A DNA stretch of 58,146 nucleotides from a bacterium. Its GTDB lineage: Bacteria; JAUVQV01; DATDCY01. The DNA is taken from the NCBI GenBank assembly GCA_036524115.1, contig DATDCY010000279.1, positions 1-58,146 of the forward strand. The letters run 5' to 3'. Each line of letters begins with the position of its first letter. The first letter of the stretch is position 1. The notes under the pieces are model-generated. The model was not told where the DNA came from. It worked only from the letters and a program-made list of their open reading frames with translations, and searched no databases. A program made the position numbers and the translations under genes. Shown piece after piece: positions 14,239-47,256 of the stretch.

Positions 14239-14243
14239 CGACC

Positions 14244-16053: not shown

Positions 16054-16054
16054 G

Positions 16055-19828: not shown

Positions 19829-19832
19829 ATCC

Positions 19833-25519: not shown

Positions 25520-25533
25520 GGCTGATGCTCCCC

Positions 25534-28500: not shown

Positions 28501-31500
28501 GGCGATGGGCGGCCCGACGAAGACCGCGGCCGCGGAGTTCGTCGTTGAGGCATAGAGATCGTAGCTGACCGGGTTCGAGGGGTAGGCGTCGGTGGCCGCG
28601 TTCCAGGTCACGTTCAAGACCCCGCCCAGGTTGGGGTTCGTGGCGGCGATGCCGGAGTTCGGGGACCAGGCCGGAGGCGCCGTGTCCGGCGTGTAGTACC
28701 AGCCCGGCGTCGTCGAGCCGGCGTGGCAGTCGACGTTCGTGCAGGTGCTCGAGGCCGCGACGAAGGCGCCGTCGGCGTCGGTGCCGCCCGTGATCGTCTT
28801 GAACCTGCTGCTCACGCCGTCCATGACGTCGGCGGGCGGGGCGGACTGGTCGCCCGAGTGAGCGCCGCCGGGGTGGCACCAGTTGCACGTGCTGGCGTTG
28901 TCCGCGCTCGTCCCCGGGTTGCCGGCCACGATCGCCGCGACGTGCTTCTGGTGCGCGCCGGGGCGGTTCTCGTAACCCGAACCGTTCTGCACGCCGCCGT
29001 CCGGGTAGACGTTCGCGCCGCTTGTGCCGTGGCAGGCGCTGCAGCTGCCCGGACCGATGTCGCGGGCGCGCAGCGGGCTGACGGTCGGCATGGTCCCGGC
29101 CGCCGGGCCGATCCGGTGGCTGGCGTCGTCCAGGTGACAGGCGGCGTTGGCGCAGCCGCCACTGGACGGGTTGTAGTTCGCGTCGTCGGTCGAGGCGGCG
29201 TTGCCGTCGTCGTTCATCGTCACGCTGCCGTCCCGGTGGTCCGTGGCCGGCACGTAGGTGTAGCTGCCGTTGAGCACGGCCGGGTCCTGCACGACGAAGC
29301 CGTCCAGGGTGCCGTTGGCCTTCACGCCGTGGCAGATCCCACACTCGTTGTGGTTGCCCTTGAGCGCGGCGGTGTTCCCGGGCGTGATCGAGTCGTGATA
29401 GACCGCCTCGGCGCCGGCAGCGTGCAGGTTGTAGTTCGCGCCCCCGTCGGCGGCACCCGTCGGCGGGTAGCCGTGGCAACTCGTGCACGAGGCCCCGCCG
29501 AAATTGACCGCGGACACGCTCCAGTTCGAGTTCTCGAGCCGGTGCCCGGCGTCGTTCCCGTGGCAGACCGCGGCGTTGCTGCAGCCGAAGTTCGCCTCGT
29601 CGTACCCGGTGCCGGTCGAGGGTTGCGGGCCGTTCATCTGGATGGCGCCATCTCCGTGCATGCCCGAGCCATCCCGCGGGTTCCAGAAGTTCGCCCCCGC
29701 CGTGTAACCGGCGTGCCTGTCGCTGCGGGAGTTCGCCCCGTGGCAGGTTCTGCAGGTCTGGTGCGTCCCGGCCGCCAGGAGCTCGGACGAGGCGTCGCCG
29801 TCCCAGTTGTACCCGTGCTCGACGGAGTTGTCCGCGCCGTTGTGCGCGCCGCCGCCGAAGGTCCAGTCATTTGCGAACCCGCCATGGCAATTGGCGCACT
29901 CCGTCCCGTCGGTGTTGGCCGCGCTCGTGTCCCAGCGACGTCTCCAACTCCCGGCGTCGCCGTTGTTCACCGTCGGGCCGTGGCACGTCGCGAAGGCGCC
30001 GCCGTTCGGGCCGCAGGTGGGCGTAGCGGCGTCGACGAAGCCGACGCTCGAGTCGAGATGGACTCTCGGGAGGCTGCCGTCGAGGGACCCGACGCTGGCG
30101 TCGAACACGCCGTCGATGTGGTTGGCCGCCGGCTCCGTCGGCGTTGTCGTGTGGCACGTGGCGCAGTCGCCCACGACCGGGCCGTCCGCGCCGTCGGCGT
30201 CCCAGGAGCCGTCGTGGCTGTTGCCCGTGACGCTGGGTGTCACGGCGTGCAGCCCGCTCACCGGGGCGTTCGCGCCGCCGCCGATGTAACTGCCGTCATG
30301 GCAGTCCAGGCAGGCCAGCGTCGTCGCGCTCGTCCAGTCGCGCCCGTCCGTCACCGCGTGGCAGGTATTCGCGCACACGCCCGTCGCCGGCGTGTACGGG
30401 AACGCAACGTCGTGGCTGCCGTTGAAGTGCGCTGCGTGCCGTCCCGCCGCCGCCCCCGCGCCGTGGCAATCGCTGCAGCCCCCGGACACGTACGCGCTGT
30501 TGTTCAGGTGCGGCGTGTGCTCGCCCGACGTCAGCGGCCAGCCGCTGAGGATCCCGCTGGCGTACAGCATCTTGCCGCTCGCGGCGTGGCAGTCGGCGCA
30601 GGAGGCCAGCGTCGTCGCGCTCCACGCGCCCGCGCCGCCCGAGCTGTTGTGACAGCCGTTGGCCGCGCCGTCGCAGTTCGCCTCCGTGTCGAAGGCGCTC
30701 GTGTAGTCGAACGCCGCCGTCATGTACGAACCGCCGAAGTTCACCGTCCCGCCCGTCCCGTGGATGCCCGTCCCCGGCGGCTGCGACCGGCCGTCGTGCG
30801 GGTGGCACACCTGGCAGCCTGCGACGTAGCCCGAGGCGACGTGCGCGTCGTGCGTCGCCTGGCTCTTGGTCGTCCCGAGGTGGCTGCGGCCGTTGGCCGC
30901 GTGGCAGTCGTTGCAGGAGGACTGCGCCCGCCAGCCCCCCAGCGCATCCTTGTTGTGGCTGTGGCACGTGTTGCAGTCGGTCCCCGGAGCCTGCTGCCCG
31001 CCCTTGTGCGTGGTGCTCGGCGAGTTGATCCACGCCGACAGCGGCGAGTACCCGCTCCCATGGCAATCGGCGACGTCGCAGACGCCGTTCGCGTCGCCGG
31101 TGCGGAAGAAGTCGAGGATGGTCGTGGAGTTGGCGTGGTAGTCCCCCGTCGAGGCAAGGTCCCACTTGGGCGTGTCGTAGACGACCGTCTCCGTGCCGGC
31201 CCTGTTCGCGAACTGGGACAGCGGCGCCTTGTAGTACCCGGCCCTCTTGGCCTTCTCCGGGATCATCATCACGTTCGAGGTGGTTCCCACCCCCTCGGCG
31301 TGCTCGTCGTGACAGTCCTGGCAGCCCACCCCGCCGGCGCTCGCCGTCTGGTGCGCCTGGTAGCTCTGGTGACAGGAGATGCAGATGCCCACCAGCGGGT
31401 TGCCCATCGCCGAGCCCGTGTCCCACGCCTGCAGCGTGCCGCTGAGGTTGAACTTCCGGAGGTACCGGTCCTGGTCCGTCGACCCCGACGTGTCGTTCGC

Positions 31501-32652
31501 GTGCGGCTTCTGCGCCGGGTCCAGCCCCACGTGGCACGCGGTGCAGGTGTAGCCCATCGTGACCTCGGTGCCGCTCGCGTCAGGCGCTGCGTTCTTGTAC
31601 CGGTAGGTGCTCTGCGCCATGCCGTGGCCGTGCTTGTAGTAGTTCCCCCCGTCGGCCAGGTTGTTCCAGTCGCCCGCGTAGTGGCACACGCTCGTGCAGT
31701 CCCCGCTGACCACCGGCGTGTCCGCCGTCATCCCGGTCCCGGTCTTGTGCTGCTCGTGCCCGTCGTTGAACAGCCGCCGGTTCGAGGAGTAGTGCGTATC
31801 GTGGCAGACCGTGCACTGCGCCGTCATCGCCAGGCCGGTGACGTCCGCCGCGCCGTTCGCGTCCAGGTCGGCGGTGCGCAGCACCGTGCTGTCGTTCTCG
31901 CGGAGCGGACGCCCCGCGCGCCCGTCCGCGTGCGCCAGCAGCCGCATGCTCACGCCCTTGATCGTCTGCGCAGCGTCGCTGCTGTGGCACGTCCGGCACA
32001 GCGTGTCGTACTCGCCGGCCGCCGTGACGCTCTTGAGCATGAACGGGTTGCCCACCGGGTCCGCCGGAGGTCCGTGTTCGGGGTACTTGTCCGCCGGCCC
32101 GCCACGCGAGGTCGCGGCGTTGCCATCGCTGCCCTCGTCGACGGTCGTGGTCGCCGGGTCGTCGCGGCCATCCGCGCAGCTGACGAGATCGTGGCAATCG
32201 ACGCAATCGAGCTCGTAGCTCGTCGCGGAATCGAGGGTGCTGAGGAACTCGTTGCGCGTATCGCTGCCCGCGCCCCGGAAGTCGTACCCCACGGGGTGGA
32301 AGGACGTCCGGCTCCGAAAGTCGCTGAGCGCCGGCTTCATCGTCCCCGTCCGGCCGCTGTCGTTGTGGCAGAAGGTGCAGCCGAGTCTCGGGGGGCTCTG
32401 GCCGGCCGGCAGCCCGGCGTACTGCGCGATCAGCGGGAAGGTGCGGACCAGCCTGTTGATGAAGCTGGTGCCCGCAGCGCCCTCGGTCTCATCCAGGGTG
32501 TGGCAGGCGTAGCAAGCCTCGCCGGCGTCGTGCGCGGCCTGTGCGGCGGGGGGGCGCGCCGCGGCGAGGGCGACGAGCGTCACCAAGCACCCCGCGAGGA
32601 GCAGGAGGCTTCGCGGCGGCGGTCCTTGTTGCACCGTATCCGCCATAGTCAT
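25534..32652 (-). CDS. giant (2372 aa) exported multihaem c-type cytochrome with Geobacter-type CxxxxCH...CxxCH repeats and two FN3-like domains
   Basis: Signal or anchor sequence ...PRSLLLLAGCLVTLVALAAARPPAAQA. Hand count from the translation gives 29 CxxCH and about 10 CxnCH variants (for example CDVADCH, CANAACH, CTNVDCH). FN3-like modules VLNVTWNAATD...YYFGVRAKD and VVQVSWNSATD...YCYGVRARD. Confidence 0.9.
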   Translation of the reverse strand: MTMADTVQQGPPPRSLLLLAGCLVTLVALAAARPPAAQAAHDAGEACYACHTLDETEGAAGTSFINRLVRTFPLIAQYAGLPAGQSPPRLGCTFCHNDSGRTGTMKPALSDFRSRTSFHPVGYDFRGAGSDTRNEFLSTLDSATSYELDCVDCHDLVSCADGRDDPATTTVDEGSDGNAATSRGGPADKYPEHGPPADPVGNPFMLKSVTAAGEYDTLCRTCHSSDAAQTIKGVSMRLLAHADGRAGRPLRENDSTVLRTADLDANGAADVTGLAMTAQCTVCHDTHYSSNRRLFNDGHEQHKTGTGMTADTPVVSGDCTSVCHYAGDWNNLADGGNYYKHGHGMAQSTYRYKNAAPDASGTEVTMGYTCTACHVGLDPAQKPHANDTSGSTDQDRYLRKFNLSGTLQAWDTGSAMGNPLVGICISCHQSYQAHQTASAGGVGCQDCHDEHAEGVGTTSNVMMIPEKAKRAGYYKAPLSQFANRAGTETVVYDTPKWDLASTGDYHANSTTILDFFRTGDANGVCDVADCHGSGYSPLSAWINSPSTTHKGGQQAPGTDCNTCHSHNKDALGGWRAQSSCNDCHAANGRSHLGTTKSQATHDAHVASGYVAGCQVCHPHDGRSQPPGTGIHGTGGTVNFGGSYMTAAFDYTSAFDTEANCDGAANGCHNSSGGAGAWSATTLASCADCHAASGKMLYASGILSGWPLTSGEHTPHLNNSAYVSGGCSDCHGAGAAAGRHAAHFNGSHDVAFPYTPATGVCANTCHAVTDGRDWTSATTLACLDCHDGSYIGGGANAPVSGLHAVTPSVTGNSHDGSWDADGADGPVVGDCATCHTTTPTEPAANHIDGVFDASVGSLDGSLPRVHLDSSVGFVDAATPTCGPNGGAFATCHGPTVNNGDAGSWRRRWDTSAANTDGTECANCHGGFANDWTFGGGAHNGADNSVEHGYNWDGDASSELLAAGTHQTCRTCHGANSRSDRHAGYTAGANFWNPRDGSGMHGDGAIQMNGPQPSTGTGYDEANFGCSNAAVCHGNDAGHRLENSNWSVSAVNFGGASCTSCHGYPPTGAADGGANYNLHAAGAEAVYHDSITPGNTAALKGNHNECGICHGVKANGTLDGFVVQDPAVLNGSYTYVPATDHRDGSVTMNDDGNAASTDDANYNPSSGGCANAACHLDDASHRIGPAAGTMPTVSPLRARDIGPGSCSACHGTSGANVYPDGGVQNGSGYENRPGAHQKHVAAIVAGNPGTSADNASTCNWCHPGGAHSGDQSAPPADVMDGVSSRFKTITGGTDADGAFVAASSTCTNVDCHAGSTTPGWYYTPDTAPPAWSPNSGIAATNPNLGGVLNVTWNAATDAYPSNPVSYDLYASTTNSAAAVFVGPPIATDLTGTSTTVTGLTVGTTYYFGVRAKDNWVTRNETTNTDISAGVAPGAATPPTSSQTVYYLTKPAGATNLWGSVNTNLSLTCGTATANLAVSGAPLWNAVPTPAAPPAGLGLLTTAKNCGTESTENYMASDATPWSYQWRNFAGFYSAPYANKTRVTGSATGNTFGFQGELNLSYLEQVLVVFAAVDASGNHTADMTRYVQTGGLTTAMAAYSLNLSPLAVTVPAGSRLAILFYYYNYFYGSVNHRIAYDSYPGIANQVTLNETILDTFPPTWNGGVSGIAAQDASTDGVVQVSWNSATDPGLATTPPVFYDLYRVQNASCAGLWDGINLYRPGLGSTSFQDTGLANGLTYCYGVRARDSADPLNATSNDAQSATATPSRGPAFGCESCHASPPTSGPSAGSHAAHANSDTDYTECNSCHPGTTSYTNSHQDGAGQLAFDGTAATAAYNGSQLSYTDNAVVIYNDPDGFGILTGSAGDGIDDGTCAGTPASTCHGAATPAWGSTTVACSSCHNGGGGTLAPVVTMASSHITAPGGSGTCKDCHAGHYKGVRIPLPPTSWSNPNLGSTNMRTQLGIAYAGGIGLGGPGTVASINGRANEADICWGCHEGVATPVSEWGYNTKTTPVGFPVATFPTSDGNQESEDHGWLYTSSSYATKASDWTQGFWMSAYDSRLKRRVASVHTASFDAAGQSSSVAANVRGNGMVERTSPTLEPKGTIRCSYCHDVHDTFGPSGKPYLRGTWVGNPYPPELPPRSTYTYTTQVGRYSTTPRGLSTSRDKGGYFIDQNSNWPTKNAAMDTVDETAGLCALCHGANVDTMDYYGSSKLWLPGMTNGHSNSCLGGTGASKVDLFSGNRDPVNAVCGMGLQMGCSSGCDNGNYPFSQSCTSKQCPPSGCGWVVANSGWYGADYANWYGSGTVGGADGPGSKAHAFTCSKCHSPHASGLPALLIQSCIDTGLSTWGVSGANLAANNCHRKTSTTDGWHILAPGQ

Positions 32653-35673: not shown

Positions 35674-36369
35674 TCAGGAAGCCAGGTCGCGGAGGGCGGC
35701 GAGGTCCTTGATCGTGATCTCGCGCTCCTCGACCTCGATCACGCCCTCGTCGCGCAGCTTCGCGAACGCCCGCGACAGCGTCTCCGCCACCGTCCCGAGG
35801 TGCGCGGCCAGCTCCCCCTTGTTCACCGCCAGGCGCACCCGCGCCCCGTCGGCGAGCGCGGTCGGCCGCTGCCGCAGCGCCTCCGCGAGCAGGTAACCGG
35901 CGAGCCGCGAGGGCACGGCCTTCGAGTACTCCGCGATCAGGTCCGTCAGCCGCCGCACCCACAGCGCCGAGCCGGCAAGCAGCTTGAACGCGATGTCCGT
36001 GCGCTTCTTGACCAGGCGGAACAGCTCCTCGCGCGGGATGAAGGCCACCCCGCTGGCCTCGAGCGCCTGCGCCGAGGCGGGATAGGAGCGCCCGACAAAC
36101 AGGGCGACCTCGGCGAAGGTCTCGCCCGGGAAGATGAAGTGCAGGATCTGCTCGCGCCCGTCCGGCGCGGTCTTGAAGACCTTGAGCTTGCCCGAGGCGC
36201 AGACGAAGAAGCCTTTCGCCTCGTCGCCCTCGGCGAAGAGCGCCCCGCCCCGCGGCACCTCCCGCAGCGTGGCCATCGCCGCGAGCGCCGCGAGGTCCTC
36301 GGGGTCGAGCCCCGAGAAGATCGGGGCCCGGCGCAGAATCTCCGCGAGGCCCGGTGCGCCCTTGCCCAT
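35674..36369 (-). CDS. Crp/Fnr family transcriptional regulator (candidate regulator of the adjacent ferredoxin/HAO-like genes)
   Basis: cNMP-binding-like domain (FPGETFAEVALFVGRSYPASAQA) and C-terminal HTH (NKGELAAHLGTVAETLSRAFAKL). No N-terminal Cys cluster is seen. Confidence 0.9.
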   Translation of the reverse strand: MGKGAPGLAEILRRAPIFSGLDPEDLAALAAMATLREVPRGGALFAEGDEAKGFFVCASGKLKVFKTAPDGREQILHFIFPGETFAEVALFVGRSYPASAQALEASGVAFIPREELFRLVKKRTDIAFKLLAGSALWVRRLTDLIAEYSKAVPSRLAGYLLAEALRQRPTALADGARVRLAVNKGELAAHLGTVAETLSRAFAKLRDEGVIEVEEREITIKDLAALRDLAS

Positions 36370-36470: not shown

Positions 36471-37520
36471 ATGACGCACGACTTCAATTTCCTGGCCACG
36501 GGGATCGGCAGCCTGCCCCTGACGGACCCGGCTGCGGCCGTGGCGCTCGCACTGCGCTACCTCCCCGAAGCGCCGATCTGGCCGCAGCTGCCGAAGCGCG
36601 GATATCGCGAGCACATGGGCGGCCAGTACGCCGAGGGCCTCCCCGGCCTCGTCGAGGACCCCGCGCGGGAGAGCTTCTCGATCGATTCCTCCCGCGATCT
36701 CACCGGCGAGCTCGAGCGTTTCTTCGAGCGCTACCTCGCGCGGGACCTCGGGCACTTCGCGATCTCGGAGGCACACGCCGCCGGGCTGCACGCGCTGCTG
36801 CGCGCGCTCGAGACGGGCGGGCCGCCGCCGGGCGCCCGCTTTCTCAAGGGCCACGTCACCGGACCGCTGACCGCGGGGCTCTCGCTCAAGGATGAACAGG
36901 GCCGCGACATCATCCACAACGAGCTGCTCTTCGACGTCGTCGTCAAGAACCTGGCGCTGAAGGCGGCCTGGCAGGTCGAGGTCCTCGGCCGCTTCGGCCG
37001 GCCGGTGATCGTCTTCATCGACGAGCCGGCGATGGAGACCCTCGGCTCGGCGTTCTCCGCGGCCGCGCCCGAGCTCGTCGCGGAGAAGCTCGAGGAGGTC
37101 ATCGCGGCGATCCACGAGGGCGGCGGCATCGCCGGCATCCACTGCTGCGGCAACGCGGACTGGCCCCTGCTCTTCGGGACGCAGGTGGACATCGTGAACT
37201 TCGACGCCTTCGACTACCTCGAGCGGGTGCTGCTGTTCCCCGCGGAGGTCGCCGCGTTCCTCGCGCGCGGCGGCGCGCTGGCGTGGGGGATCGTGCCGAC
37301 CAGCGGCTCCACGGGAACCGAGACCGCCGCGGGGCTCATCGAGCGGCTCGAGGGCGGTTTCGCCCGGCTCGGGGCGGCCGGGATCGCCCGGGAGACCCTT
37401 GTCCGGCAGGGGATCGTGACGCCCTCCTGCGGCCTGGGGAGCCTCTCGCCCGCGCAGGCCGAGGCGGCGCTGCGACTGACGCTCGAGATCTCGGCGCGTC
37501 TGCGGCGGCAACCCGCGTGA
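36471..37520 (+). CDS. cobalamin-independent methionine synthase (MetE C-terminal)/URO-D-like Zn-dependent alkyltransferase family protein
   Basis: IFIDEPAM, GIHCCGNADW and VTPSCGLG resemble the His-x-Cys...Cys zinc site of the MetE catalytic domain. 349 aa. Confidence 0.65.
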   Translation: MTHDFNFLATGIGSLPLTDPAAAVALALRYLPEAPIWPQLPKRGYREHMGGQYAEGLPGLVEDPARESFSIDSSRDLTGELERFFERYLARDLGHFAISEAHAAGLHALLRALETGGPPPGARFLKGHVTGPLTAGLSLKDEQGRDIIHNELLFDVVVKNLALKAAWQVEVLGRFGRPVIVFIDEPAMETLGSAFSAAAPELVAEKLEEVIAAIHEGGGIAGIHCCGNADWPLLFGTQVDIVNFDAFDYLERVLLFPAEVAAFLARGGALAWGIVPTSGSTGTETAAGLIERLEGGFARLGAAGIARETLVRQGIVTPSCGLGSLSPAQAEAALRLTLEISARLRRQPA

Positions 37521-39247
37521 GGCCGGCCGTGGCGGGCGCCCTGAGGACGCCGCGGTTTCTCCTGCTCGCCGCGGCGCTCGTCGTGGCGGTCTTCGCCATC
37601 TACGGCCAAGTCTACGACCACCAGTTCATCGCCTACGACGACGACTCCTACATCTACACCGTGTCGGAGGTGCAGGACGGCCTCACCCTCCACGGCCTGC
37701 GCTGGGCCTTCGATGGCGCCCACGCCGGCAACTACCACCCGCTCACGTGGCTCTCGCACATGCTCGACGTCTCGCTCTTCGGCCTGCGCCCGGGCGGGCA
37801 CCACGTGATGAACGTCGCATTCCACGCCGCAAACGCGGTGCTGCTCGCGGGGGTGTTGATCTCGGCCACCGGCGCGTTCCGGCCGGGCGCCGCGGTCGCG
37901 GCCCTCTTCGCCCTGCACCCGCTGCGCGTGGAGTCGGTCGCCTGGGCCTCCGAGCGCAAGGACGTGCTCTCCACGCTCTTCGGCCTGCTCGCGCTGGCGG
38001 CGTACGTGCGCGCGGTGCGCCGTCCCGGCATCGGCAGGACGCTTGCGGACTTCGGCCTCGCGCCCCGGCACCTCGCGGTGCTCGGCCTCTTCTTCCTGGG
38101 CCTGCTCGCGAAGCCGATGCTCGTGACGCTCCCCTTCGCGCTGCTGCTCCTGGATTTCTGGCCGCTCGGCCGGTTCCGCGCCGCCGGGACCGGCGGCGCG
38201 ACGGCCACGGCCTTCCGGGAGCGCCCGTGGGTTCGGCCGGCGCTCGAGAAGCTGCCGCTGCTCCTGCTTTCGGCCGCCTGGAGCTTGCTGACGGTGTGGG
38301 CGCAGACGACGGACGTGCTGCCGATCGTGAAGCCGGCGTTCCTGACGCGCCTCGGCAACGCCGCCCTCTCCTACGTGAAGTACCTCGGGAGCTTCGTCTG
38401 GCCCGCGCAGCTTGCGTTCCTCTATCCGTACCCGACCGAGGGAGGCGCCGTGGCCGTATCCCCGGCGGCCTCCATCGTCGCCGCGGCCATCCTTGTCGCC
38501 ATCACCGCCGTGGTGATTGTGTATGCCAAGCGCCGGCCGTTTCTGCCGATGGGCTGGTTCTGGTACGCGGGCATGCTCGTGCCGGTGATCGGGCTGGTCC
38601 AGGTGGGGGGCCAGGAGCGCAGCGACCGTTACACGTACCTCACGACCACGGGCATCGCGATCGCCTTCGTCTGGCTGGCGGCCGCCAATTGGCCGCGTCG
38701 TGCCGGCCTGCGGCGCGCGCTGGGTGCCGGATTCCTCCTCGTGCTCGCGCTGCTGGGGACCGTGGCCTGGACCTACACCGGGTACTGGAGGGACAGCCTC
38801 AGGCTCTTCGCCTACACCGTGGACCGCACCCGCGACAACTACCTGGTCCTGAACAACTACGGCACTGCGCTCATGCAGGCGAACCGGATCGACGAGGCGA
38901 TCAAGTGGCTGCGCGAAACGGCCCGGGTCAACCCGGAGCACTGCAACGCCCACTACAACCTCGGCGTCGCCCTCGTCAAGCAGGACCGCTTCACGGAAGC
39001 GGTGATCCCGCTGCTGCGCTCGCTGAAGTGCTACGAGGACGAGGGGCGGGTCGGGATCTACATCGCCGACACCCACTACAACCTCGGGGTCGCCCTCTCG
39101 GGCATGGGCAAGTACGCCGAGGCCGAGAGCCACCTGCGCGCCGCCCTCGCCATCGCCCCCCGCTACCCCGGCGCCAGCGCCGCCCTCGGCGAGACGCTCC
39201 GCCGCAAGGCGCTGACGTCCGGTGCGCCCGCGGCGACGCGGCCCTGA
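37517..39247 (+). CDS. TMTC/DUF1736-like GT-C membrane glycosyltransferase-like protein with C-terminal TPR repeats (paralog a)
   Basis: GTG 37517 overlaps the upstream stop (GTGA). YDDDSY, NYHPLTWLSHMLD, HPLRVESVAWASERKDVL, LLLLDFWPLGR and VIGLVQVGGQERSDRYTYL, then TPRs (AHYNLGVAL...). Confidence 0.8.
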   Translation: MRPAVAGALRTPRFLLLAAALVVAVFAIYGQVYDHQFIAYDDDSYIYTVSEVQDGLTLHGLRWAFDGAHAGNYHPLTWLSHMLDVSLFGLRPGGHHVMNVAFHAANAVLLAGVLISATGAFRPGAAVAALFALHPLRVESVAWASERKDVLSTLFGLLALAAYVRAVRRPGIGRTLADFGLAPRHLAVLGLFFLGLLAKPMLVTLPFALLLLDFWPLGRFRAAGTGGATATAFRERPWVRPALEKLPLLLLSAAWSLLTVWAQTTDVLPIVKPAFLTRLGNAALSYVKYLGSFVWPAQLAFLYPYPTEGGAVAVSPAASIVAAAILVAITAVVIVYAKRRPFLPMGWFWYAGMLVPVIGLVQVGGQERSDRYTYLTTTGIAIAFVWLAAANWPRRAGLRRALGAGFLLVLALLGTVAWTYTGYWRDSLRLFAYTVDRTRDNYLVLNNYGTALMQANRIDEAIKWLRETARVNPEHCNAHYNLGVALVKQDRFTEAVIPLLRSLKCYEDEGRVGIYIADTHYNLGVALSGMGKYAEAESHLRAALAIAPRYPGASAALGETLRRKALTSGAPAATRP

Positions 39248-39309
39248 CCGCCTTCGGCCCCGGTGACCGGCGAGGGCGCGACCCCGCGGGCGAGGGCCTC
39301 GGGCAGACC

Positions 39310-41037
39310 ATGGACGTGAAGGACGCTTCTCCGACGCGCCCGCGCCCGCTCGCGCTGCCCGCGGCGGTTGCGGCGGTCCTGGCGCTCGCGGTCGCCGGCG
39401 TCTACCGGCACGCGGGGGGATTCGCCTTCGTGTTCGACGACGGCGGCTTCATCCTCGGCAACCCCCGCGTCACCGGCGGCCTGAGCGTCGAGAGCGCCCG
39501 TTGGGCCCTCACGGCGACCTACACCGCGAACTGGCACCCGCTCACCTGGCTCTCCCACCTGCTCGATGTCAGCCTCTTCGGCCTCCGGCCCGGGCCCCCG
39601 CACCTGGTCAACGTGGTCATCCACGCGGTCAACACGGTGCTCGTGCTCCTGGTGCTGCGCCGGCTCACGGGGACGCTCTGGCCGGGCGCGTTCGCCGCCG
39701 CGCTCTTCGGGGTGCACCCGCTCCACGTCGAGTCCGTGGCGTGGGTCTCGGAGCGCAAGGACGTGCTCAGCGCGCTGCTGTGGCTGCTCGCGACCGCGGC
39801 CTACGTCCGCTATGCCGCCCGACGGAGCGTGGCGCGGTACCTGCTCGTCTGCCTGCTCTTCGCCCTCGGGCTTGCGGCCAAGGCGATGGTGGTCACGCTG
39901 CCGGCGGTCCTGCTGCTGCTCGACTTCTGGCCGCTGGGCCGCCTCGGGCCCGCCGCGCGCGGCGGCGGCCGCTGGCGCGCGCCGCTCCTCGAGAAGGTGC
40001 CGCTGCTGGCGATCTCCGCCGCCGGCAGCCTGCTGGCGATCTTCGCCCAGCGCGACAGCGGCGCGCTCGCCTCGGGCGAGGTCTACCGCCTGGCCTGGCG
40101 CGCGGCAAACGCGGCGATCTCCTACGCCGTCTACCTTGGCAAGACGCTCTGGCCCGCCGGCCTCGCCGCCTACTACTCCTTCCGCCTCGAGGCGCCGCCG
40201 GCCTCGGAGACGGCGGCGGCGGCGCTCCTGCTGCTGTGCCTGTCCGCCGCGGCGCTCGCGCTCGCGCGCCGCGCGCCCTGGCTGGCAGCCGGGTGGGGCT
40301 GGTACCTCGTCACGCTCCTGCCCGTCATCGGCCTGATCCAGGTCGGCGGCCAGGCCCGCGCCGACCGCTACCTCTACCTGCCCATGATCGGCCTGGCGAT
40401 TGTCGCGGCGTGGGGTGCGCCGGCCCTCGCCGCGCGCCTGCATCGCGCCCCGACGGCGCTGGCCGCGCCTGCGGCGGTTGCGCTCCTGGCCCTCGCCGCC
40501 GCCGGCTCGCTCCAGGCCGGCTACTGGCGCTCCAACGAGACGCTCTTCCGGCACGCCCTGGCGGTGACGCGGGACAACTGGCTCGCGCACAGCTTCCTCG
40601 GCGCGGAGGCGCGCAAGCGGGGCGACGCGCAGGCCGCGGTCGCGCACTACCGCGAGGCGGTCCGGGGCAACACCGCCTCGGCGGACATGCGCTACAACCT
40701 CGGGCTGGCCCTCGCCGAGGCCGGCCTCACGGCCGAAGCCATCAGCGAACTGCGCATGGCGCTGCACCTCAACCCCGCGAAGGCGGAGGCCACGCTCCTG
40801 CTCGCGCGTTCCCTCGCGCTCGCCGGCGACGTGCCGGCGGCCCTCGCGACGTTCCGCGCCGCCGCGCGCCTGATGCCGGACCGCGCCGACGTCTGGAACG
40901 ACCTGGGCAACGCGGCCTTCCGTTTCGGGGCGCTGCCCGAGGCCGAGGCCGCGTTCAGCCAGGCGGTGCGCCTGCAGCCGGGCTCCCCGCTCTACCGGTG
41001 GAACCTGCAGCAGGCGCAGGCGCCCCGGGCCCGTTAG
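39310..41037 (+). CDS. TMTC/DUF1736-like GT-C + TPR protein (paralog b)
   Basis: ATG 39310. FDDGGF, NWHPLTWLSHLLD, HPLHVESVAWVSERKDVL and LLLLDFWPLGR, with C-terminal TPRs. Confidence 0.8.
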   Translation: MDVKDASPTRPRPLALPAAVAAVLALAVAGVYRHAGGFAFVFDDGGFILGNPRVTGGLSVESARWALTATYTANWHPLTWLSHLLDVSLFGLRPGPPHLVNVVIHAVNTVLVLLVLRRLTGTLWPGAFAAALFGVHPLHVESVAWVSERKDVLSALLWLLATAAYVRYAARRSVARYLLVCLLFALGLAAKAMVVTLPAVLLLLDFWPLGRLGPAARGGGRWRAPLLEKVPLLAISAAGSLLAIFAQRDSGALASGEVYRLAWRAANAAISYAVYLGKTLWPAGLAAYYSFRLEAPPASETAAAALLLLCLSAAALALARRAPWLAAGWGWYLVTLLPVIGLIQVGGQARADRYLYLPMIGLAIVAAWGAPALAARLHRAPTALAAPAAVALLALAAAGSLQAGYWRSNETLFRHALAVTRDNWLAHSFLGAEARKRGDAQAAVAHYREAVRGNTASADMRYNLGLALAEAGLTAEAISELRMALHLNPAKAEATLLLARSLALAGDVPAALATFRAAARLMPDRADVWNDLGNAAFRFGALPEAEAAFSQAVRLQPGSPLYRWNLQQAQAPRAR

Positions 41038-41051
41038 GGCGAGGGCTGCCG

Positions 41052-42650
41052 GTGCGTCGCGGCGCCCTCTGCCTGGTCCTCACCGCGGCGACCTTCGCGA
41101 TCTTCTCCCGCACCGGCGCCAACGAGTTCCTCCTCTACGACGACGCCCAGTACGTCGTCATGAACCCGCGCGTCGCCGGCGGACTCTCTGCGGCGGGAGT
41201 GCGCTGGGCCTTCACGGAATTCCACGCCTACAACTGGCACCCGCTGACGTGGCTCTCGCACATGCTCGACGCGCAGCTCTTCGGCGGCGACCCGCGCGGC
41301 CCGCACCTCGTCAACGCCGGCCTGCACGCGGCCGCGGCGGTGCTGCTGTTCCTCGCCCTGGAGGCGGCGACGGGCGCGCTGGCGGCGCCGGCCTTCGTCG
41401 CGGGCGCGTTCGCCCTGCACCCGCTGCACGTCCAGTCGGTGGCGTGGGCGGCCGAGCGCAAGGACGTGCTCTCGGCCCTCTTCTGGTTCGCGGCCCTGCT
41501 CGCCTGGGTACGCTACGCGCGCCGGCCCGGCCTCGCGCGCTACCTCGCGGCCGTTGCCCTCTTCTCGCTGGGGCTGCTCTCGAAGCCGATGGTCGTGACG
41601 CTGCCGCTCGTGCTGCTGCTCCTGGACTTCTGGCCGCTTGGACGCGCGCCCGGCTTCCCGAAACCGCGGGCGCGAGCCGGCGGGGACGGCAGCTGCCCGG
41701 CCTGGGGTCGCCTCGTCCTGGAGAAGGCGCCGCTCGCGGCGCTCGCCGCGGCGGCGGCCCTGCTGGCGTTGCGCGCCCAGGCCGCGGGCGGGTCGATCAA
41801 CCGCCTGTACCCGGCGTCGCTCCGGGCGGAGAACGCCCTGGTCTCGCTCGTCGCCTACCTCGGCGGGGCGCTCTGGCCCGCCGGCCTCGCCGTCCACTAT
41901 CCCTACCCCGTCGACGGCATCCCGTGGTGGGGCGCCGCCGGCGCCGCCCTCCTGCTGGCGGGGGTCACGGCGGCCGCGGCGCGCCGGCTGCGCGACGCGC
42001 CCTGGATGGCCACGGGCTGGGGCTGGTACCTGGTGACGCTGCTGCCGGTCATCGGGATCGTCCAGGTCGGCAACCAGGCCAGGGCCGACCGCTACACCTA
42101 CCTGCCGCTGACAGGCGTCTTCCTGGCCGTCGCGTGGGGCTGCGGCGGCGTCGCGCGGCGATTCCGCCGTGGCCGCGCCGTCGCCGCCGCCGCGTGCGCC
42201 CTGCTGGCGGCGTGGGCCGCCGCCTCGTGGGCGCAGATCGGCTACTGGCACGACGGCGTCACACTCTTCACCCGCTCGCTCGCGGTCACGCGGGACAACG
42301 GCGACGCGCGCTACCAGCTGGGGCAGGCCCTGCTGCGCCAGGGGAGGTTCCCCGAGGCGCTGGCCCAGTTGACGCGGTCCGTGGAGCTGAACCCCGCGGA
42401 CCCGCACGCGCAGAACGACCTCGGGGTGGCGCTCTCGCGCACGGGAGGCCGCGCGGCCGCGGTCGCGGCGTTCAGGCGCGCCATCGAGCTCTCGCCGACG
42501 TACGCGGACCCGTACCTGAACCTCGCGACGGCGCTCCTTTCGCTGGGCGAGCGGACGCAGGCGCTCTCGGTCTGGCGGGAGCTGCGCGCGGTGGACCCCG
42601 AGGCCGCGGAGCGCCTCGCGCCGTTCGTCGGCGCGGGGGGGGCGCCGTGA
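41052..42650 (+). CDS. TMTC/DUF1736-like GT-C + TPR protein (paralog c)
   Basis: GTG 41052. YDDAQY, NWHPLTWLSHMLD, HPLHVQSVAWAAERKDVL and LLLLDFWPLGR, with C-terminal TPRs. Confidence 0.8.
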   Translation: MRRGALCLVLTAATFAIFSRTGANEFLLYDDAQYVVMNPRVAGGLSAAGVRWAFTEFHAYNWHPLTWLSHMLDAQLFGGDPRGPHLVNAGLHAAAAVLLFLALEAATGALAAPAFVAGAFALHPLHVQSVAWAAERKDVLSALFWFAALLAWVRYARRPGLARYLAAVALFSLGLLSKPMVVTLPLVLLLLDFWPLGRAPGFPKPRARAGGDGSCPAWGRLVLEKAPLAALAAAAALLALRAQAAGGSINRLYPASLRAENALVSLVAYLGGALWPAGLAVHYPYPVDGIPWWGAAGAALLLAGVTAAAARRLRDAPWMATGWGWYLVTLLPVIGIVQVGNQARADRYTYLPLTGVFLAVAWGCGGVARRFRRGRAVAAAACALLAAWAAASWAQIGYWHDGVTLFTRSLAVTRDNGDARYQLGQALLRQGRFPEALAQLTRSVELNPADPHAQNDLGVALSRTGGRAAAVAAFRRAIELSPTYADPYLNLATALLSLGERTQALSVWRELRAVDPEAAERLAPFVGAGGAP

Positions 42651-44203
42651 GAGCCGCGCCGGCCGCCGGCGCGGCGCTGCTGCTGCTGGTGCTGGTGCTC
42701 GTCTGCTTCCTGCCCGTCCTGGACAACGGCTTCGTCAACTACGACGACGACAAGTACGTCACGGCCAACGCGAACCTGGACGCGGGGGCGGCGCACATCG
42801 CCCGCTGGGCGTTCACCGGCTTCACCGCGTCCAACTGGCACCCGCTCACCTGGCTCTCGCACGCGCTCGACGTCGCCCTCTTCGGCAGGGTGCCGCGCTG
42901 GCACCACCTCGTCAGCCTCCTGCTCCACGTCGCGAACACGCTGGCGCTCTTCCTGCTGCTGCGCCGGCTGACCGGGGCGGTCTGGAGCAGCGCCTTCGCG
43001 GCGGGGGTCTTCGGCGTCCACCCGCTGCACGTCGAGTCCGTCGCCTGGGTGGCCGAGCGCAAGGACCTGCTCGCCGGGCTTTGCCTGTGGCTGGCGCTCC
43101 TGGCGTACCGGCGCTATCTGGCGCGCAAGAGCGCGCCGCGCTACCTCGCCGTGCTGCTCCTGCACGGGCTCGGGCTGATGGCGAAGCCGATGCTGGTGAC
43201 CCTGCCCGCCGTGCTGCTGCTGCTCGATTTCTGGCCGCTCGGGAGGCTGCGCCCGGGCGCGGCGTCGGGCGGCGGCGCCGGTGGCCGCGAGCCGCCGGCA
43301 CGGGTGCTCGCGGAGAAGCTCCCCTTCCTCGCGCTGTCGGTCGCGTCGGTCGCCGTGACGCTCGTGGCGCAGGCCCGGGGCGGGGCGATGAAGAGCCTCG
43401 AGGAGTACCCCCTCGCGCAGCGCGCCGGCAACGCGCTGGTCAGCCTGGCGCGCTATCTCGACAAGGCGCTCTGGCCGCGCGACCTCGCCGTCTTCTACCC
43501 GCACCCGGGCGCAGCGCTCGGCACGGCGGCGGTCCTTGCGGCCGCGGCGGCGCTCGTCGCCGTCACGCTCATGGCCGTGCGCGGCGCGCGCAGCCGGCCG
43601 CACCTGGCCGCCGGATGGCTCTGGTACCTGGTCACGCTCTCGCCGGTGCTGGGCGTCGTCCAGGTCGGTGCGCAGGCGATGGCGGATCGCTACATGTACA
43701 TCCCGCTCGCGGGGCCGGCGATCGCCGCCGCCTGGTGGCTCGCCGCCGCGGTGCGGCGCAGCAGGCACGGCGAAGCGCTGGCCGCCGCGGCGTGCACGGC
43801 GATCCTCCTCGTCCTCGGCGCCCAGGCGCGCAGCCAGGTCGGCGTCTGGCGCTCGAGCGTCACGCTCTTCGAGCACGCCCTGGTCGCGACGCGCGAGAAC
43901 TACGTGGCGCACGACAACCTGGCCGTCGCCCTCGCCGAGGCAGGGCGCACGCGCGAGGCGCTGCTCCACGCCCTGCAGGCCCAGCGCATCCGACCCGACC
44001 GGGAGCCGGGGCGCTACCTGGACCTCGCCCGCGCGCTGATGGGGCAGCGGTTGTACCCGGAGGCGGTGGAGGCCCTCGGGATCGCCCAGCGCATGCTGCC
44101 GGGCGACGACCAGGTCCGCCAGCTCATGGTCGTGGCGCGCGCGACGGCACTGAGGCATGCGCCCGCCGGCCCGCCCGTCTCGCCTGCCCCGCCGGGCCGC
44201 TGA
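42647..44203 (+). CDS. TMTC/DUF1736-like GT-C + TPR protein (paralog d)
   Basis: GTG 42647 overlaps the upstream stop (GTGA). YDDDKY, NWHPLTWLSHALD, HPLHVESVAWVAERKDLL and LLLLDFWPLGR, with C-terminal TPRs. Confidence 0.8.
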   Translation: MRAAPAAGAALLLLVLVLVCFLPVLDNGFVNYDDDKYVTANANLDAGAAHIARWAFTGFTASNWHPLTWLSHALDVALFGRVPRWHHLVSLLLHVANTLALFLLLRRLTGAVWSSAFAAGVFGVHPLHVESVAWVAERKDLLAGLCLWLALLAYRRYLARKSAPRYLAVLLLHGLGLMAKPMLVTLPAVLLLLDFWPLGRLRPGAASGGGAGGREPPARVLAEKLPFLALSVASVAVTLVAQARGGAMKSLEEYPLAQRAGNALVSLARYLDKALWPRDLAVFYPHPGAALGTAAVLAAAAALVAVTLMAVRGARSRPHLAAGWLWYLVTLSPVLGVVQVGAQAMADRYMYIPLAGPAIAAAWWLAAAVRRSRHGEALAAAACTAILLVLGAQARSQVGVWRSSVTLFEHALVATRENYVAHDNLAVALAEAGRTREALLHALQAQRIRPDREPGRYLDLARALMGQRLYPEAVEALGIAQRMLPGDDQVRQLMVVARATALRHAPAGPPVSPAPPGR

Positions 44204-44295: not shown

Positions 44296-46350
44296 GTGCC
44301 TGTTCCGTCGAAGAAGCCTGCGAGAGCGCCCTCTGGCCCGTCGGGCCTGGCGCGCGTCGCCGTCGCCGCCCACTGCCTCGTCGTCGCCGTGGCGGCGGTG
44401 CTCGCCCTCTGGCGACCCGCGCCGGTCGAGGAACGCATCGAGGGCCCGCTCCTCGACCTGCGCTTCCACGCGCGCAACGCCTGGTGGCAGCTCACGGGGG
44501 CCGACGCCGACTGGCGCCGGCGGCCGCGCGCGGGCGGCGGCTCGGCGACCCAGTCCCCGCGCGTCGTCGTCGTCGCGATCGACAAGGCGAGCGAGGACCG
44601 CTACGGCGCCTGGCCCTGGCACTCCGTGCGCATCAGCGCGCTGCTCCAGAGGATCGCCGGCGGCGGGCCGCGGGCGATCGCGCTCGCGCTCGCCCCGCCC
44701 GGGGAGGGCGAGCCGTGGGAGGACCGCAGCTTCGTCGAGGCGCTCTCGGGGCTGCGCGGCCGGATCGCGGTCGGCGTCGACTTCAGGACCGGGACGGCGC
44801 GCGCGGGCGAGGACCCGGCATGGCTCGGCGAGTCGGTGATCACGCGCGTCGAGCAGCCGCGGCTGCTCGAGCCGCTGGAGGCCGCGGGCCCGCTGCCGGG
44901 GTACGGGCCGGCCGCGCGGGCCGCGTCGGTGGGTCACGCGCGCTACGAGCGCGACGGCAGGGGCGTGGCGCGCCGGGAGATCCTCTACCTGCGCTACGAC
45001 GGCGCCTTGGTCCCGTCGCTCGCCCTGCAGGCCGCGCGCCTCGCCGAGGGGCTGCCGGCCGGCGCGGTGGGGATCCGCGGAGACGGGTCTGTCTCGTTGG
45101 GCGGCACGACGATCCCCGCCGACCGGCGCGGGCGGCTCACCGTCAACTACTACGGCCCCGAGGGGTCGCTGCCGCGATACGCGGCGACGGCGGTCCTCGA
45201 GGGCGACACGGACCCCGGCGCCTTCGAGGGCGCGGTCGTCTTCGTCGGCACGACCGGCATCGCCTCGTACGACCTCGTCGGGACCCCGTTCACGGACGAG
45301 CTGCCCGACGTGGAGCGCAGCGCCACCGTCGCGGCGAACATCCTCCGCCGCGACTTCCGCCGCGAGGCCTCCCCGGGCCTCAACGTCCTGGTGGTGCTCG
45401 CCGCGGGCGCCGCTGTCCCCCTGCTCTGCCGCGGGCGCCGCGGCGCGCTCTCGCTGCTGGCCCTGGCCGCGCTGGCGGCGGCGCTCGCCGCCGGCGCCAC
45501 CGGGCTCTTCCTGCGCGGGGTCGACGTGGCGCTGTGCTATCCGCTCGCGCTCGTCCTGGCCACCGGTGGCGCGACCGTCGCGCGCCAGTTCCAGGCGCAG
45601 CGGCGGGTTGCGCGCCGCATGCGGGGGCTGTTCTCGAGCTACGTCACCGAGCGCGTCGTCGAGCGGCTCATCGCGGACCCGGCGATGGCGCGGCTCGGCG
45701 GGGAGCGCCGCGAGGTGTCCATCCTCTTCGCGGACATCCGGGGCTTCACCGGCTTCTCCGAGAAACACCCGCCCGAGCGCGTCGTCGCGACGCTCAACGA
45801 GTACCTCGGGGCCATGACCGAGGTCGTCTTCCGCTGGGAGGGGACCCTCGACAAGTTCATCGGGGACACCATCCTCGCCTTCTGGGGCGCGCCGCTGCCG
45901 CAGGAGGACCACGCCGAGCGCGCGCTGCGCTGCGCCCTGCACCTGTGCTCCCGGCTCGACCGGCTCAACGCCGCGTGGACCGCGGCGGGACGGCCTCCGC
46001 TCGAGATCGGCATCGGGGTGACCAGCGGCACCGTGCTCGTGGGCAACATCGGCGCCGAGGGCAAGAAGATGGACTACACCGTCATCGGCGACCAGGTGAA
46101 CCTCTGCTCGCGCGTCGAGGAGCTGACGAAGCCGCTGCGCGCCCGGATCCTCATCGCGGCGGGCACGTTCGAACGCCTGCGACCGCTGCTCGCAGGCCGG
46201 GGCTTCGGGCACGTCGTCCTCGAGGGCCCCGTGCAGGTCGCCGTCAAGGGCAGGGAGGAAGCCGTCGGCGTCTACCGCGTCACGCCGCGGGACCACGGCG
46301 AGCCGTCCGAGGTCATCGGCGGGGGCGACGTGCCGCAACCCGGGGGGTGA
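44296..46350 (+). CDS. CHASE2 sensor domain-containing class III adenylate/guanylate cyclase
   Basis: CHASE2-like VVVVAIDKASEDRYGAWPWHSVRISALL, then a TM cluster. Cyclase core VSILFADIRGFTGFSE...GDTILAFWGAP...IGIGVTSGTVLVGNIG...YTVIGDQVNLCSRVE. Confidence 0.85.
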   Translation: MPVPSKKPARAPSGPSGLARVAVAAHCLVVAVAAVLALWRPAPVEERIEGPLLDLRFHARNAWWQLTGADADWRRRPRAGGGSATQSPRVVVVAIDKASEDRYGAWPWHSVRISALLQRIAGGGPRAIALALAPPGEGEPWEDRSFVEALSGLRGRIAVGVDFRTGTARAGEDPAWLGESVITRVEQPRLLEPLEAAGPLPGYGPAARAASVGHARYERDGRGVARREILYLRYDGALVPSLALQAARLAEGLPAGAVGIRGDGSVSLGGTTIPADRRGRLTVNYYGPEGSLPRYAATAVLEGDTDPGAFEGAVVFVGTTGIASYDLVGTPFTDELPDVERSATVAANILRRDFRREASPGLNVLVVLAAGAAVPLLCRGRRGALSLLALAALAAALAAGATGLFLRGVDVALCYPLALVLATGGATVARQFQAQRRVARRMRGLFSSYVTERVVERLIADPAMARLGGERREVSILFADIRGFTGFSEKHPPERVVATLNEYLGAMTEVVFRWEGTLDKFIGDTILAFWGAPLPQEDHAERALRCALHLCSRLDRLNAAWTAAGRPPLEIGIGVTSGTVLVGNIGAEGKKMDYTVIGDQVNLCSRVEELTKPLRARILIAAGTFERLRPLLAGRGFGHVVLEGPVQVAVKGREEAVGVYRVTPRDHGEPSEVIGGGDVPQPGG

Positions 46351-46385
46351 GGGCCCGCTTCCGCTTTGTCTTCGCCTGGCGCCTG

Positions 46386-46394
46386 TGCTACGGT
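46386..46394 (+). promoter_or_regulatory. possible extended -10 (TGCTACGGT) for the DsbC-like gene
   Basis: Lies 41 nt upstream of ATG 46435. It shares the GTGCTAYRNT pattern seen at three other promoter positions in the window. Confidence 0.35.
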
Positions 46395-46434
46395 ACGGGC
46401 AGTGTCTTTCCGACAACGAAGGAGGCAACCGACC

Positions 46435-47256
46435 ATGCTTGAGACTCGCCCCGCCGCGCGACGCACGTTGATCGCGCTCCTGCCGGCCCTGGCCATGCCC
46501 GCCGTGGCCGCCGCCCAGTGCCCGTCCGCCGAGCAGGTGAACGCCAATATTCTCGAGGTCTTCAAGCGCCCGGGGATCGAGGTCAGGAAGGTCTCCCCCT
46601 CGCCCGCCAAGGGCCTGTGCGAGGTCATCGTCTACTTCCAGGGCAAACCGAACGCGCTCTACGTCGACGCGGCCGGCGGCTTCTTCGTCACCGGCCACCT
46701 CATCGACGTCAAGAACGGCAGGGACGTCACCGAGGAGACGCTCTCCGCGCTCAACAGCCTTTCCCCCGAGGACATGAAGAAGGTCGAGGGCCTGGTCGCG
46801 ATGACGGTCGGCACGAAGGGGCCGGTCGTCTACTTCGTGACCGACCCCCAGTGACCGTACTGCAAGAGGGCCGGTGCGGCCCTCAGGGAGCTGGCCGACA
46901 AGGGCGAGGTGCAGGTGAAGGTGCTGCTCTTCCCGCTGGCAATGCACAAGGGCGCGCGCGAGCAGTGCGTCGCGGCGTACTGCGACAAGAAGAGCTTCGA
47001 GGAGCTCGAGAACGGCTACACGTCCGACAACCAGTGCGCGGCGGGGGCGAAGCTCGTCGACGACACCATCGCCCTGCTCTCGTCGAAGGGGGTCTCCGGG
47101 ACGCCGACGTACCTCTTTGCGGACGGGCGCTACCAGTCGGGCGTGCTCGAGGCTGACGGCCTGCGCCAGCGCCTCGGGCTCGCGACGGCGCCCAAGCCCC
47201 CCGCCGAGGGGGCGCCCCCGGCGCCGAAGAAGCCGGCCGCCCCGCCGAAGAAGTAA
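46435..47256 (+). CDS. DsbC/DsbG-like thiol:disulfide isomerase with in-frame UGA (predicted selenocysteine) in a U-P-Y-C redox motif
   Basis: ATG 46435 follows GAAGGAGG. There is a signal peptide and a DsbC N-terminal-like domain. ORFs 46366..46854 and 46909..47256 share one frame and are split only by TGA 46852-46854, giving FVTDPQ-U-PYCKR. The downstream part carries the cis-Pro loop SGTPTYLF. Confidence 0.8.
46866..46884 (+). promoter_or_regulatory. SECIS-like stem-loop
   Basis: GAGGGCC-GGUGC-GGCCCUC, a perfect 7-bp stem that starts 11 nt after the UGA and has G/U in the apical loop. Confidence 0.6.

Follow-up and report, generated by a model that had tools for sequence, protein, structure and literature searches.

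The stretch of DNA analysed here (58,146 bases, contig DATDCY010000279.1 of the bacterial assembly GCA_036524115.1; hereafter the window) carries seven paralogous genes, G1 to G7, whose products share a polytopic membrane domain that is homologous to the N-terminal domain of the animal TMTC protein O-mannosyltransferases and that is followed in most of them by tetratricopeptide (TPR) repeats. The G+C content of the window is approximately 72%, rising to approximately 90-97% at third codon positions (GC3), and near-identical copies of its sequence recur across many soil metagenomes. An earlier note on this DNA had described four consecutive open reading frames (ORFs) of 518-576 amino acids (aa) within 37517-44203 and further paralogs starting at 52027, 55291 and 56976. 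The coordinates of the four were confirmed, and the other three are G5, G6 and G7:

G1, 37517-39247, plus strand: 576 aa, GTG start; TMTC-like GT-C membrane domain (approximately residues 1-426) and C-terminal TPR.
G2, 39310-41037, plus strand: 575 aa, ATG start; architecture as G1.
G3, 41052-42650, plus strand: 532 aa, GTG start; architecture as G1.
G4, 42647-44203, plus strand: 518 aa, GTG start; family membrane domain with a short, degenerate TPR tail.
G5, 52027-53766, plus strand: 579 aa; architecture as G1.
G6, 55291-56979, plus strand: 562 aa; a member of a divergent subfamily.
G7, 56976-58146, plus strand: 390 aa up to the window end, which cuts the gene; family membrane domain.

All seven paralogs match the family hidden Markov model (HMM) across its whole length with 454-593 bits, contain neither frameshifts nor internal stops, and belong to the family far beyond chance; G4 scores 593 bits against the membrane-domain HMM. 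Every motif quoted earlier was found in the sequence, namely YDDDSY, FDDGGF, YDDAQY, YDDDKY, NWHPLTWLSH, HPLHVESVAWVSERKDVL, LLLLDFWPLGR and VIGLIQVGGQARADRYLYLP. The proposal that the four-gene array is translationally coupled held in part. The TGA stop of the MetE-like gene upstream overlaps the GTG start of G1 (GTGA), and the G3/G4 junction is a second GTGA overlap; G1 and G2 are separated by 62 nucleotides (nt) and G2 and G3 by 14 nt, so that one of the three junctions inside the array, rather than two, is a GTGA overlap. Outside the array, G6 and G7 overlap by ATGA. The start of G3 at 41052 is backed by an ortholog with the identical N-terminal peptide VRRGALCLV (locus L084, see below).

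For comparison with TMTCs, we used a profile of 19 bacterial membrane domains, including the seven of the window, and a profile of eight animal TMTC N-terminal domains (human and Drosophila TMTC1-4, from supplementary file 2 of PMC7801869). The two aligned in hhalign over the whole domain (query 24-405, template 8-429; 376 columns, 26% identity) with a probability of 99.8% and E=7e-30, which bears out the resemblance to eukaryotic TMTCs that the earlier note had suspected, while a control alignment of the bacterial profile with a single ArnT sequence gave a probability of 1.4% and no similarity. By this measure, the window proteins are true homologs of TMTCs and much closer to them than to ArnT. 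Seven conserved motifs, M1-M7, have been defined in TMTCs (PMC7801869), and they fare as follows in the window proteins:

M1, TMTC DD: retained and invariant.
M2, TMTC SHKSYRPL: N-W-H-P-L, partial.
M3, TMTC HPIHTEAVAG..GRAD (RxD): HPLHVESVAW..ERKD, retained.
M4, TMTC KE(T/Q)xxT: Lys and Thr retained; Glu replaced by Pro, Ala or Ser.
M5, TMTC DW: (F/Y)-Y; the preceding DNPA missing.
M6, TMTC PxxP: second Pro only.
M7, TMTC ERxxY: DRYxY, retained.

The acidic motif of the first loop, to which attention had been drawn before, holds throughout: DD is invariant in the seven paralogs and in 112 of 112 aligned family sequences. H136-P137, K191, D352 and Y356 (G2 numbering) are likewise invariant in the 112 sequences. 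G6 departs furthest from the other paralogs, with DHF for DRY, ERKN for ERKD and QYYPLVF for NWHPLTW; its membrane domain is 36-41% identical to theirs, and its closest relatives lie in other phyla (55% identity to a gene in locus L034).

Full-length G2, predicted with AlphaFold on the 112-sequence alignment (pLDDT 95.2, pTM 0.93), shows 11 long membrane helices, after which TPR hairpins begin at residue 409. Full-length queries, either as a profile against Protein Data Bank (PDB) sequences or as the G2 model in Foldseek, were dominated by TPR proteins (OGT, designed CTPR, APC/C), and the membrane domain was therefore modelled and searched alone. The model of the isolated G1 membrane domain (pLDDT 91.3, pTM 0.92) yielded 13 Foldseek matches in the PDB with a probability of at least 0.96, all of them GT-C enzymes (Pmt4, PglB, AglB, STT3, Pmt1/2, ArnT and AftA; query-normalised TM-score 0.37-0.53). 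The best match was Pmt4 (9i5k; E=1.6e-3, TM-score 0.50), and PglB, AglB and STT3 reached TM-scores of up to 0.53. DPY19, AftB and EmbB followed at probabilities of 0.80-0.91, and matches to unrelated proteins (transporters, GPCRs/receptors) stayed at or below 0.15. With GT-C enzymes as the sole high-probability matches, the models support the GT-C fold proposed before, with no solved structure close to it. In the G2 model, DD comes immediately after helix 1. The loops bearing motifs take turns with short, Arg-rich ones (171-173, 207-222, 318-322 and 377-380), and from this pattern the positive-inside rule predicts a periplasmic location for every motif loop, that of DD included, and for the TPR domain.

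Profile searches recovered the C-terminal part more readily than the membrane domain. Pfam found TPR repeats at the C-terminus, as expected from the earlier description, strongly in G1, G2, G3, G5 and G6 and weakly in G4. NCBIfam matched the G proteins solely in the TPR part, and its weak TPR matches include BcsC, PgaA and PrsT. When the membrane domains were searched in isolation, only that of G2 passed the gathering cut-off of the Pfam model PMT_2 (27.0 vs 26.1 bits), followed by G3 (23.9) and G7 (20.7); G1, G4, G5 and G6 had no PMT_2 match in the Pfam scan. These weak matches span helices 2-6. No MIR domain was found in the Pfam scan of the G proteins, and loop 5 is approximately 20 residues long in the model.

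The family is large and widespread. A profile search of 1.84 billion cluster representatives (50%-identity clusters) retrieved 113,712 proteins at E<=1e-3 and 34,399 at E<=1e-30. GTDB relatives belong to Planctomycetota, Verrucomicrobiota, Desulfobacterota, Acidobacteriota, Hydrogenedentota, Gemmatimonadota, Ignavibacteria and Chlorobiaceae. Most homologs are named 'tetratricopeptide repeat protein', 'PilF' or 'TadD', and a few carry 'protein O-mannosyl-transferase', an automatic JGI label. Prokaryotic homologs of TMTCs have been mentioned in passing only (PMC7801869; bioRxiv 10.1101/2023.08.23.554508). Full-text literature searches turned up no characterised bacterial member, although absence from the library searched does not prove absence. 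At least two family members lay within 10 kb in 32 of the 80 loci fetched, which come from many phyla; they were mostly in tandem on one strand, with up to seven copies. The tandem array is thus an ordinary trait of the family and nothing special to the source genome.

Furthermore, the paralogs of the window are old. Their membrane halves are 47-54% identical and their TPR halves 24-37%, in line with the claim that the TPR domains are divergent, and they are no closer to each other than to homologs in other phyla. Three loci carry distinct orthologs. The 6.9-kb contig L083 (DATMXB010000206.1 of GCA_035562375.1), syntenic with 33-40 kb of the window, encodes in order a cytochrome, Fer4, Crp, the MetE-like protein (83% identity) and the orthologs of G1 (66%) and G2 (77%). 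The metagenome contig L084 has the G1 ortholog followed by those of G2 (87%, P0002) and G3 (83%), and the G2 ortholog in L081 (P0010) is 65% identical. The duplications are old and the copies individually maintained; intact genes with distinct orthologs in conserved order are not what recent, degenerating duplicates would look like. Between orthologs, dN/dS (Nei-Gojobori) amounts to 0.30-0.39 in the membrane half and 0.39-0.56 in the TPR half, against 0.22 in the MetE-like gene, all values being inflated because GC3 compresses dS. A check on the two halves had been suggested; with values below 1 in both, the G genes are under purifying selection. Paralog dN/dS values (0.56-1.7) were discarded, as alignments at 26-54% identity are saturated and the GC3 of approximately 90-97% compresses dS.

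The genes around the paralogs, also on the plus strand, include the following:

MetE-like gene, 36471-37520, plus strand: 349 aa; short 'methionine synthase II / MetE-like' family; GTGA overlap with G1.
CHASE2 adenylate/guanylate cyclase, 44296-46350, plus strand: 92 nt downstream of G4.
DsbC-like gene, 46366-47256, plus strand: DsbC_N and thioredoxin-like domain; a single in-frame TGA at 46852-46854.
Acyl_transf_3 membrane acyltransferase, 50879-51994, plus strand: Pfam PF01757, E=5e-13; ends 32 nt upstream of G5.
ORF X, 53801-55225, plus strand: 474 aa, polytopic, approximately nine hydrophobic segments; between G5 and G6; 'WFDELWS' (FDE) after the first helix.

The name of the MetE-like gene is only partly borne out. 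It has no Pfam, NCBIfam or PDB sequence match, whereas JGI gives its many homologs (64-89% identity) the name 'methionine synthase II (cobalamin-independent)'. Its coupling to G1 was rejected as a family-wide functional link, the gene not being found near members in other phyla; it is regarded as local synteny, shared with L083. ORF X has no Pfam match, and its sole match is the flippase-associated protein Agl23 (TIGR03663; E=0.0014, far below the cut-off). It shows no relation to the family profile and was rejected as an eighth member; it could be another GT-C-type enzyme lacking TPR. The Acyl_transf_3 product may act on a glycan made by the G enzymes, judging from an adjacency that is not conserved elsewhere. 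Downstream of G4, the CHASE2 cyclase and the DsbC-like gene are followed by a PAS hybrid histidine kinase and a phosphonate-binding-type (PhnD-like) protein. Across 81 loci, no family member from another phylum had a MetE-like, Acyl_transf_3, ORF X, DsbC-like, histidine kinase or PhnD-like gene nearby. The one recurring neighbour is the CHASE2 cyclase, confined to the closest relative, L081, in which a homolog of it (17931-19841) with 53% identity in the cyclase region is located close to the G2 ortholog. Two Crp/cNMP-binding regulators are encoded in the window (8204-8884 and 35674-36369).

In a census of the ORFs located no more than two genes from a family member at the other loci (127 ORFs, 80 loci), the commonest families were Glycos_transf_2 (6/127), Radical_SAM (5/127) and PMT_2 (5/127), and the G2 ortholog in L081 neighbours PGM/PMM, GT4 and GDSL genes. 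Pfam scans of the window revealed no pilin or DprE genes, and Rfam and tRNA scans of it were empty. Two sediment 'RNA-Seq' runs gave short contigs only, and 96% of them continue into dissimilar sequence. A few of these contigs, 151 nt long, match G2 (39315-39853) at 96-99% identity, and the other matches are mostly short fragments of conserved motifs. The 151-nt contigs hint at most at transcription of a G2 ortholog, since DNA carry-over is possible, and do not show expression or an operon.

The TGA of the DsbC-like gene takes the place of exactly the first residue of the redox motif (...VTDPQ-[TGA]-PYCKR), which would give UPYC instead of CxxC, and a stable GC-rich hairpin (GAGGGCCG-GUG-CGGCCCUC, approximately 46866-46884) begins 14 nt downstream of it. 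The gene probably encodes a selenocysteine-containing disulfide isomerase and is not a pseudogene. A few kb upstream of the array, with the Fer4 and Crp genes between, lie a 2372-aa multihaem protein on the minus strand (25534-32652; cytochrome c7/c3-type modules and a weak fn3 match) and, adjoining it, an approximately 800-aa protein with three Big_1/invasin Ig-like domains (23129-25528, minus strand). The order cytochrome-Fer4-Crp-MetE-like is common to the window and L083. L083 comes from a metagenome-assembled genome (MAG) that bears the name of an archaeon, 'Candidatus Methanoperedens sp.'; to judge from its genes (Crp and bacterial TMTC-like genes), this contig may have been wrongly binned. 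Further upstream, a minus-strand run at 14929-22200 encodes a class-I methyltransferase, a radical SAM/HemN_C protein, a ThiC-family radical SAM enzyme (E=3e-97), a PALP enzyme and an HMGL-like enzyme and looks like a small-molecule or cofactor biosynthesis cluster; an EamA transporter (22217-23101) comes after it. Two adjacent plus-strand ORFs, 13111-14238 and 13878-14951, have an Lcl_C (Legionella collagen-like C-terminal) domain (E=8e-58 and 8e-24). Because their listed coordinates overlap, the second probably starts further downstream than listed.

We propose, with moderate confidence, that each G gene encodes an inner-membrane TMTC-like (CAZy GT105-like) GT-C glycosyltransferase, which would use a polyprenyl-linked donor and modify an envelope protein recruited by the TPR domain. 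That the proteins are active GT-C transferases with a lipid-linked donor is quite probable, while a protein as the acceptor, argued by analogy, is put forward more tentatively. As donor we envisage a polyprenyl-phosphate-linked monosaccharide that a GT2 enzyme would make in the cytoplasm and that, once flipped across the membrane, would be bound at the periplasmic face. We infer such a donor because the loop-3 Lys and the loop-5 DRYxY align with the donor-phosphate motifs of TMTCs; its phosphate would be held by the invariant Lys of loop 3 (K191 in G2) and by D-R-Y-x-Y of loop 5 (D352, R353 and Y356). The invariant DD of loop 1 (D43/D44 in G2) may activate or position the acceptor hydroxyl, and the periplasmic TPR domain would recruit the acceptor, for which the analogy with TMTC, PMT and TfpW makes a protein of the envelope or a secreted one the most likely candidate. 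The paralogs might split acceptors, or donors, between them.

Several observations weigh against this proposal. The Pfam model DUF1736 (PF08409) matched none of the seven proteins even at E<=10, and none of the 120 best homologs carries it in its precomputed Pfam list, so the label 'DUF1736-like' of the earlier note has been dropped. In human TMTCs, by comparison, the model reaches E<1e-30 in every protein except the canonical TMTC1 entry Q8IUR5, at 3e-19 (PMC7801869). The loop equivalent to DUF1736 can be aligned with that of TMTCs, yet lacks DNPA and the Asp of DW, and the silence of the model is explained by the missing M4 Glu and M5 Asp together with the divergence of loop 4. In TMTCs, this Glu and this Asp have been modelled as the metal ligands (PMC7801869). 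Neither position is conserved in the window proteins, so the details of the TMTC active site are not simply transferable and the chemistry may differ. In G6, the loop-5 Arg, conserved elsewhere, is missing. Foldseek E-values are weak even at their best (1.6e-3), and HMM searches with membrane-domain profiles built from 7 and from 19 sequences retrieved no GT-C enzyme from the PDB sequences; their sole marginal match, BesB, was dismissed as chance. No polyprenyl-phosphate sugar synthase was found among the scanned ORFs of the window, and no activity, donor or acceptor has been reported for any bacterial family member. The neighbourhood fits a glycan-related role, as weak evidence, the census having no control set. 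The earlier reading of these proteins as glycosyltransferases stands at the level of fold and homology (GT-C, TMTC) and not at that of the DUF1736 signature. Because DUF1736 failed to match and two motif residues are missing, G1-G7 are classed, on their sequences, as GT-C enzymes of a bacterial TMTC-like (GT105-like) type rather than as orthologs of TMTCs.

The acceptor of such GT-C transferases might instead be a lipid or polysaccharide (lipid A or lipopolysaccharide (LPS) core, peptidoglycan, exopolysaccharide or a glycan side-branch), with ArnT as the model for lipid A/LPS core, GtrII-type enzymes as the model for a side-branch, and the TPR domain docking to an envelope assembly machine. 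ArnT, AftA, AftB and EmbB occur among the structural matches, GT2, GT4, PGM/PMM and Acyl_transf_3 neighbours are typical of polysaccharide loci, and TPR repeats are also found in polysaccharide export proteins, as the weak matches to BcsC, PgaA and PrsT recall. We nevertheless regard a non-protein acceptor as rather unlikely: the closest relatives of known function, TMTC1-4, act on proteins (PMC7801869), the sole characterised bacterial GT-C enzyme with TPR, TfpW, modifies a protein, ArnT itself shows no profile similarity, and the arrays have no conserved polysaccharide gene cluster around them. The proteins might also be no enzymes at all, their TPR domains serving as scaffolds or chaperones anchored by an inactive GT-C-derived domain. 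The prevailing database names ('tetratricopeptide repeat protein', 'PilF' and 'TadD') imply as much, and the loss of the residues modelled as metal ligands in TMTCs would agree with it. Such names, however, stem from the TPR repeats alone, and conservation is highest in the membrane domain rather than in the TPR; moreover, DD, K191, D352 and Y356 do not vary among 112 sequences drawn from many phyla and coincide with motifs for catalysis and donor binding in TMTC and other GT-C enzymes, which makes an inactive scaffold very unlikely.

The array itself might reflect a recent, redundant and lineage-specific amplification (e.g., under diversifying pressure), with interchangeable copies, some of them decaying. 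Its tandem arrangement on a single strand, the short or overlapping junctions and the short, low-scoring TPR tail of G4 could be taken that way. This explanation, contradicted by the ortholog and identity data, is the most improbable of those considered. Paralog identity is merely 47-54% in the membrane half and 24-37% in the TPR half, each paralog is as near to homologs of other phyla as to its neighbours, the orthologs of G1, G2 and G3 are distinct (66-87%) and keep their order in L083 and L084, all copies match the family HMM over its full length, and ortholog dN/dS is below 1.

What the window adds is seven further members, a clean example with intact, old paralogs, of a kind of family and array that are already ordinary, and by itself it shows nothing that is absent from other family loci. 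More interesting is the family in its entirety, which comprises more than 100,000 uncharacterised sequence clusters with frequent arrays of 2-7 genes and is a possible bacterial counterpart of the TMTC pathway. To our knowledge, bacterial GT-C protein O-glycosylation has been well studied only for the actinobacterial Pmt, PglL/TfpO-type enzymes and TfpW. If envelope proteins are indeed glycosylated by these enzymes, this would be among the most abundant unstudied post-translational systems of environmental bacteria and would offer a tractable model for TPR-based acceptor choice by TMTC-type enzymes. As a bolder and quite doubtful extension, the arrays could represent a widespread, unrecognised system of periplasmic protein O-glycosylation, in which the TPR domain of each paralog picks a class of envelope proteins. 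The candidate acceptors could then be beta-sandwich (Ig-like, fn3) domains, for example in the neighbouring Big_1 protein and the 2372-aa cytochrome. Such a bacterial system would parallel, and perhaps predate, the O-mannosylation of cadherin domains by animal TMTCs. With both modelled metal ligands missing, its enzymes might also follow another mechanism, possibly one independent of metal.

Among known systems, ArnT (GT83) and STT3/PglB/AglB share the GT-C core with the window proteins (TM-score 0.39-0.53), and R353, a basic residue that precedes helix 10, is the counterpart of an Arg conserved in STT3-type enzymes (PMC7801869). There is, however, no profile similarity to the ArnT sequence, and the GT-C enzymes of the PDB, STT3/PglB/AglB included, show no HMM similarity; ArnT and STT3/PglB/AglB also have other C-terminal domains. 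The PMT family (GT39; yeast Pmt1/2/4 and actinobacterial Pmt) has the same fold, with Pmt4 (9i5k) as the best structural match and Pmt1/2 (6p25) also matching, and has an acidic pair in loop 1 as well; unlike the window proteins, whose presumed recruiting module is a C-terminal TPR domain, PMTs have a MIR domain in loop 5. TfpW of Pseudomonas aeruginosa is a GT-C enzyme with 11 predicted helices and a periplasmic TPR domain that glycosylates pilin as a D-arabinofuranosyl transferase and requires a DDX motif (bioRxiv 10.1101/2020.04.19.049825). It resembles the window proteins in its GT-C and TPR architecture, the likeness being one of architecture alone. tfpW lies directly downstream of pilA and depends on the D-Araf synthesis genes DprE1/2 (bioRxiv 10.1101/2020.04.19.049825), whereas the G genes adjoin the MetE-like, CHASE2 cyclase, Acyl_transf_3 and ORF X genes, with no pilin or Dpr genes seen.

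Animal TMTC1-4 (GT105; Eisenhaber et al. 2021, PMC7801869) provide the closest comparison. They differ from the window proteins in having a DUF1736 match, the loop-4 DNPA/DW (Asp replaced by Phe/Tyr in the window) and the Glu of KE(T/Q)xxT, as well as a much longer TPR domain than the approximately 3-5 repeats found here. The bacterial donor, moreover, would be a polyprenyl (undecaprenyl-type) phosphate sugar rather than Dol-P-Man, and the cadherins that TMTCs modify do not exist here. On the other hand, both groups have 11 helices, a cytoplasmic N-terminus and non-cytoplasmic C-terminal TPR repeats, with the sidedness of the window proteins as predicted here. They share DD (M1), xxRPL/WHPL (M2, partial), HP(I/L)H(T/V)E.VA....R.D (M3), K.....T (M4), the second Pro of PxxP (M6) and (E/D)RxxY (M7), and several paralogs per genome occur in both.

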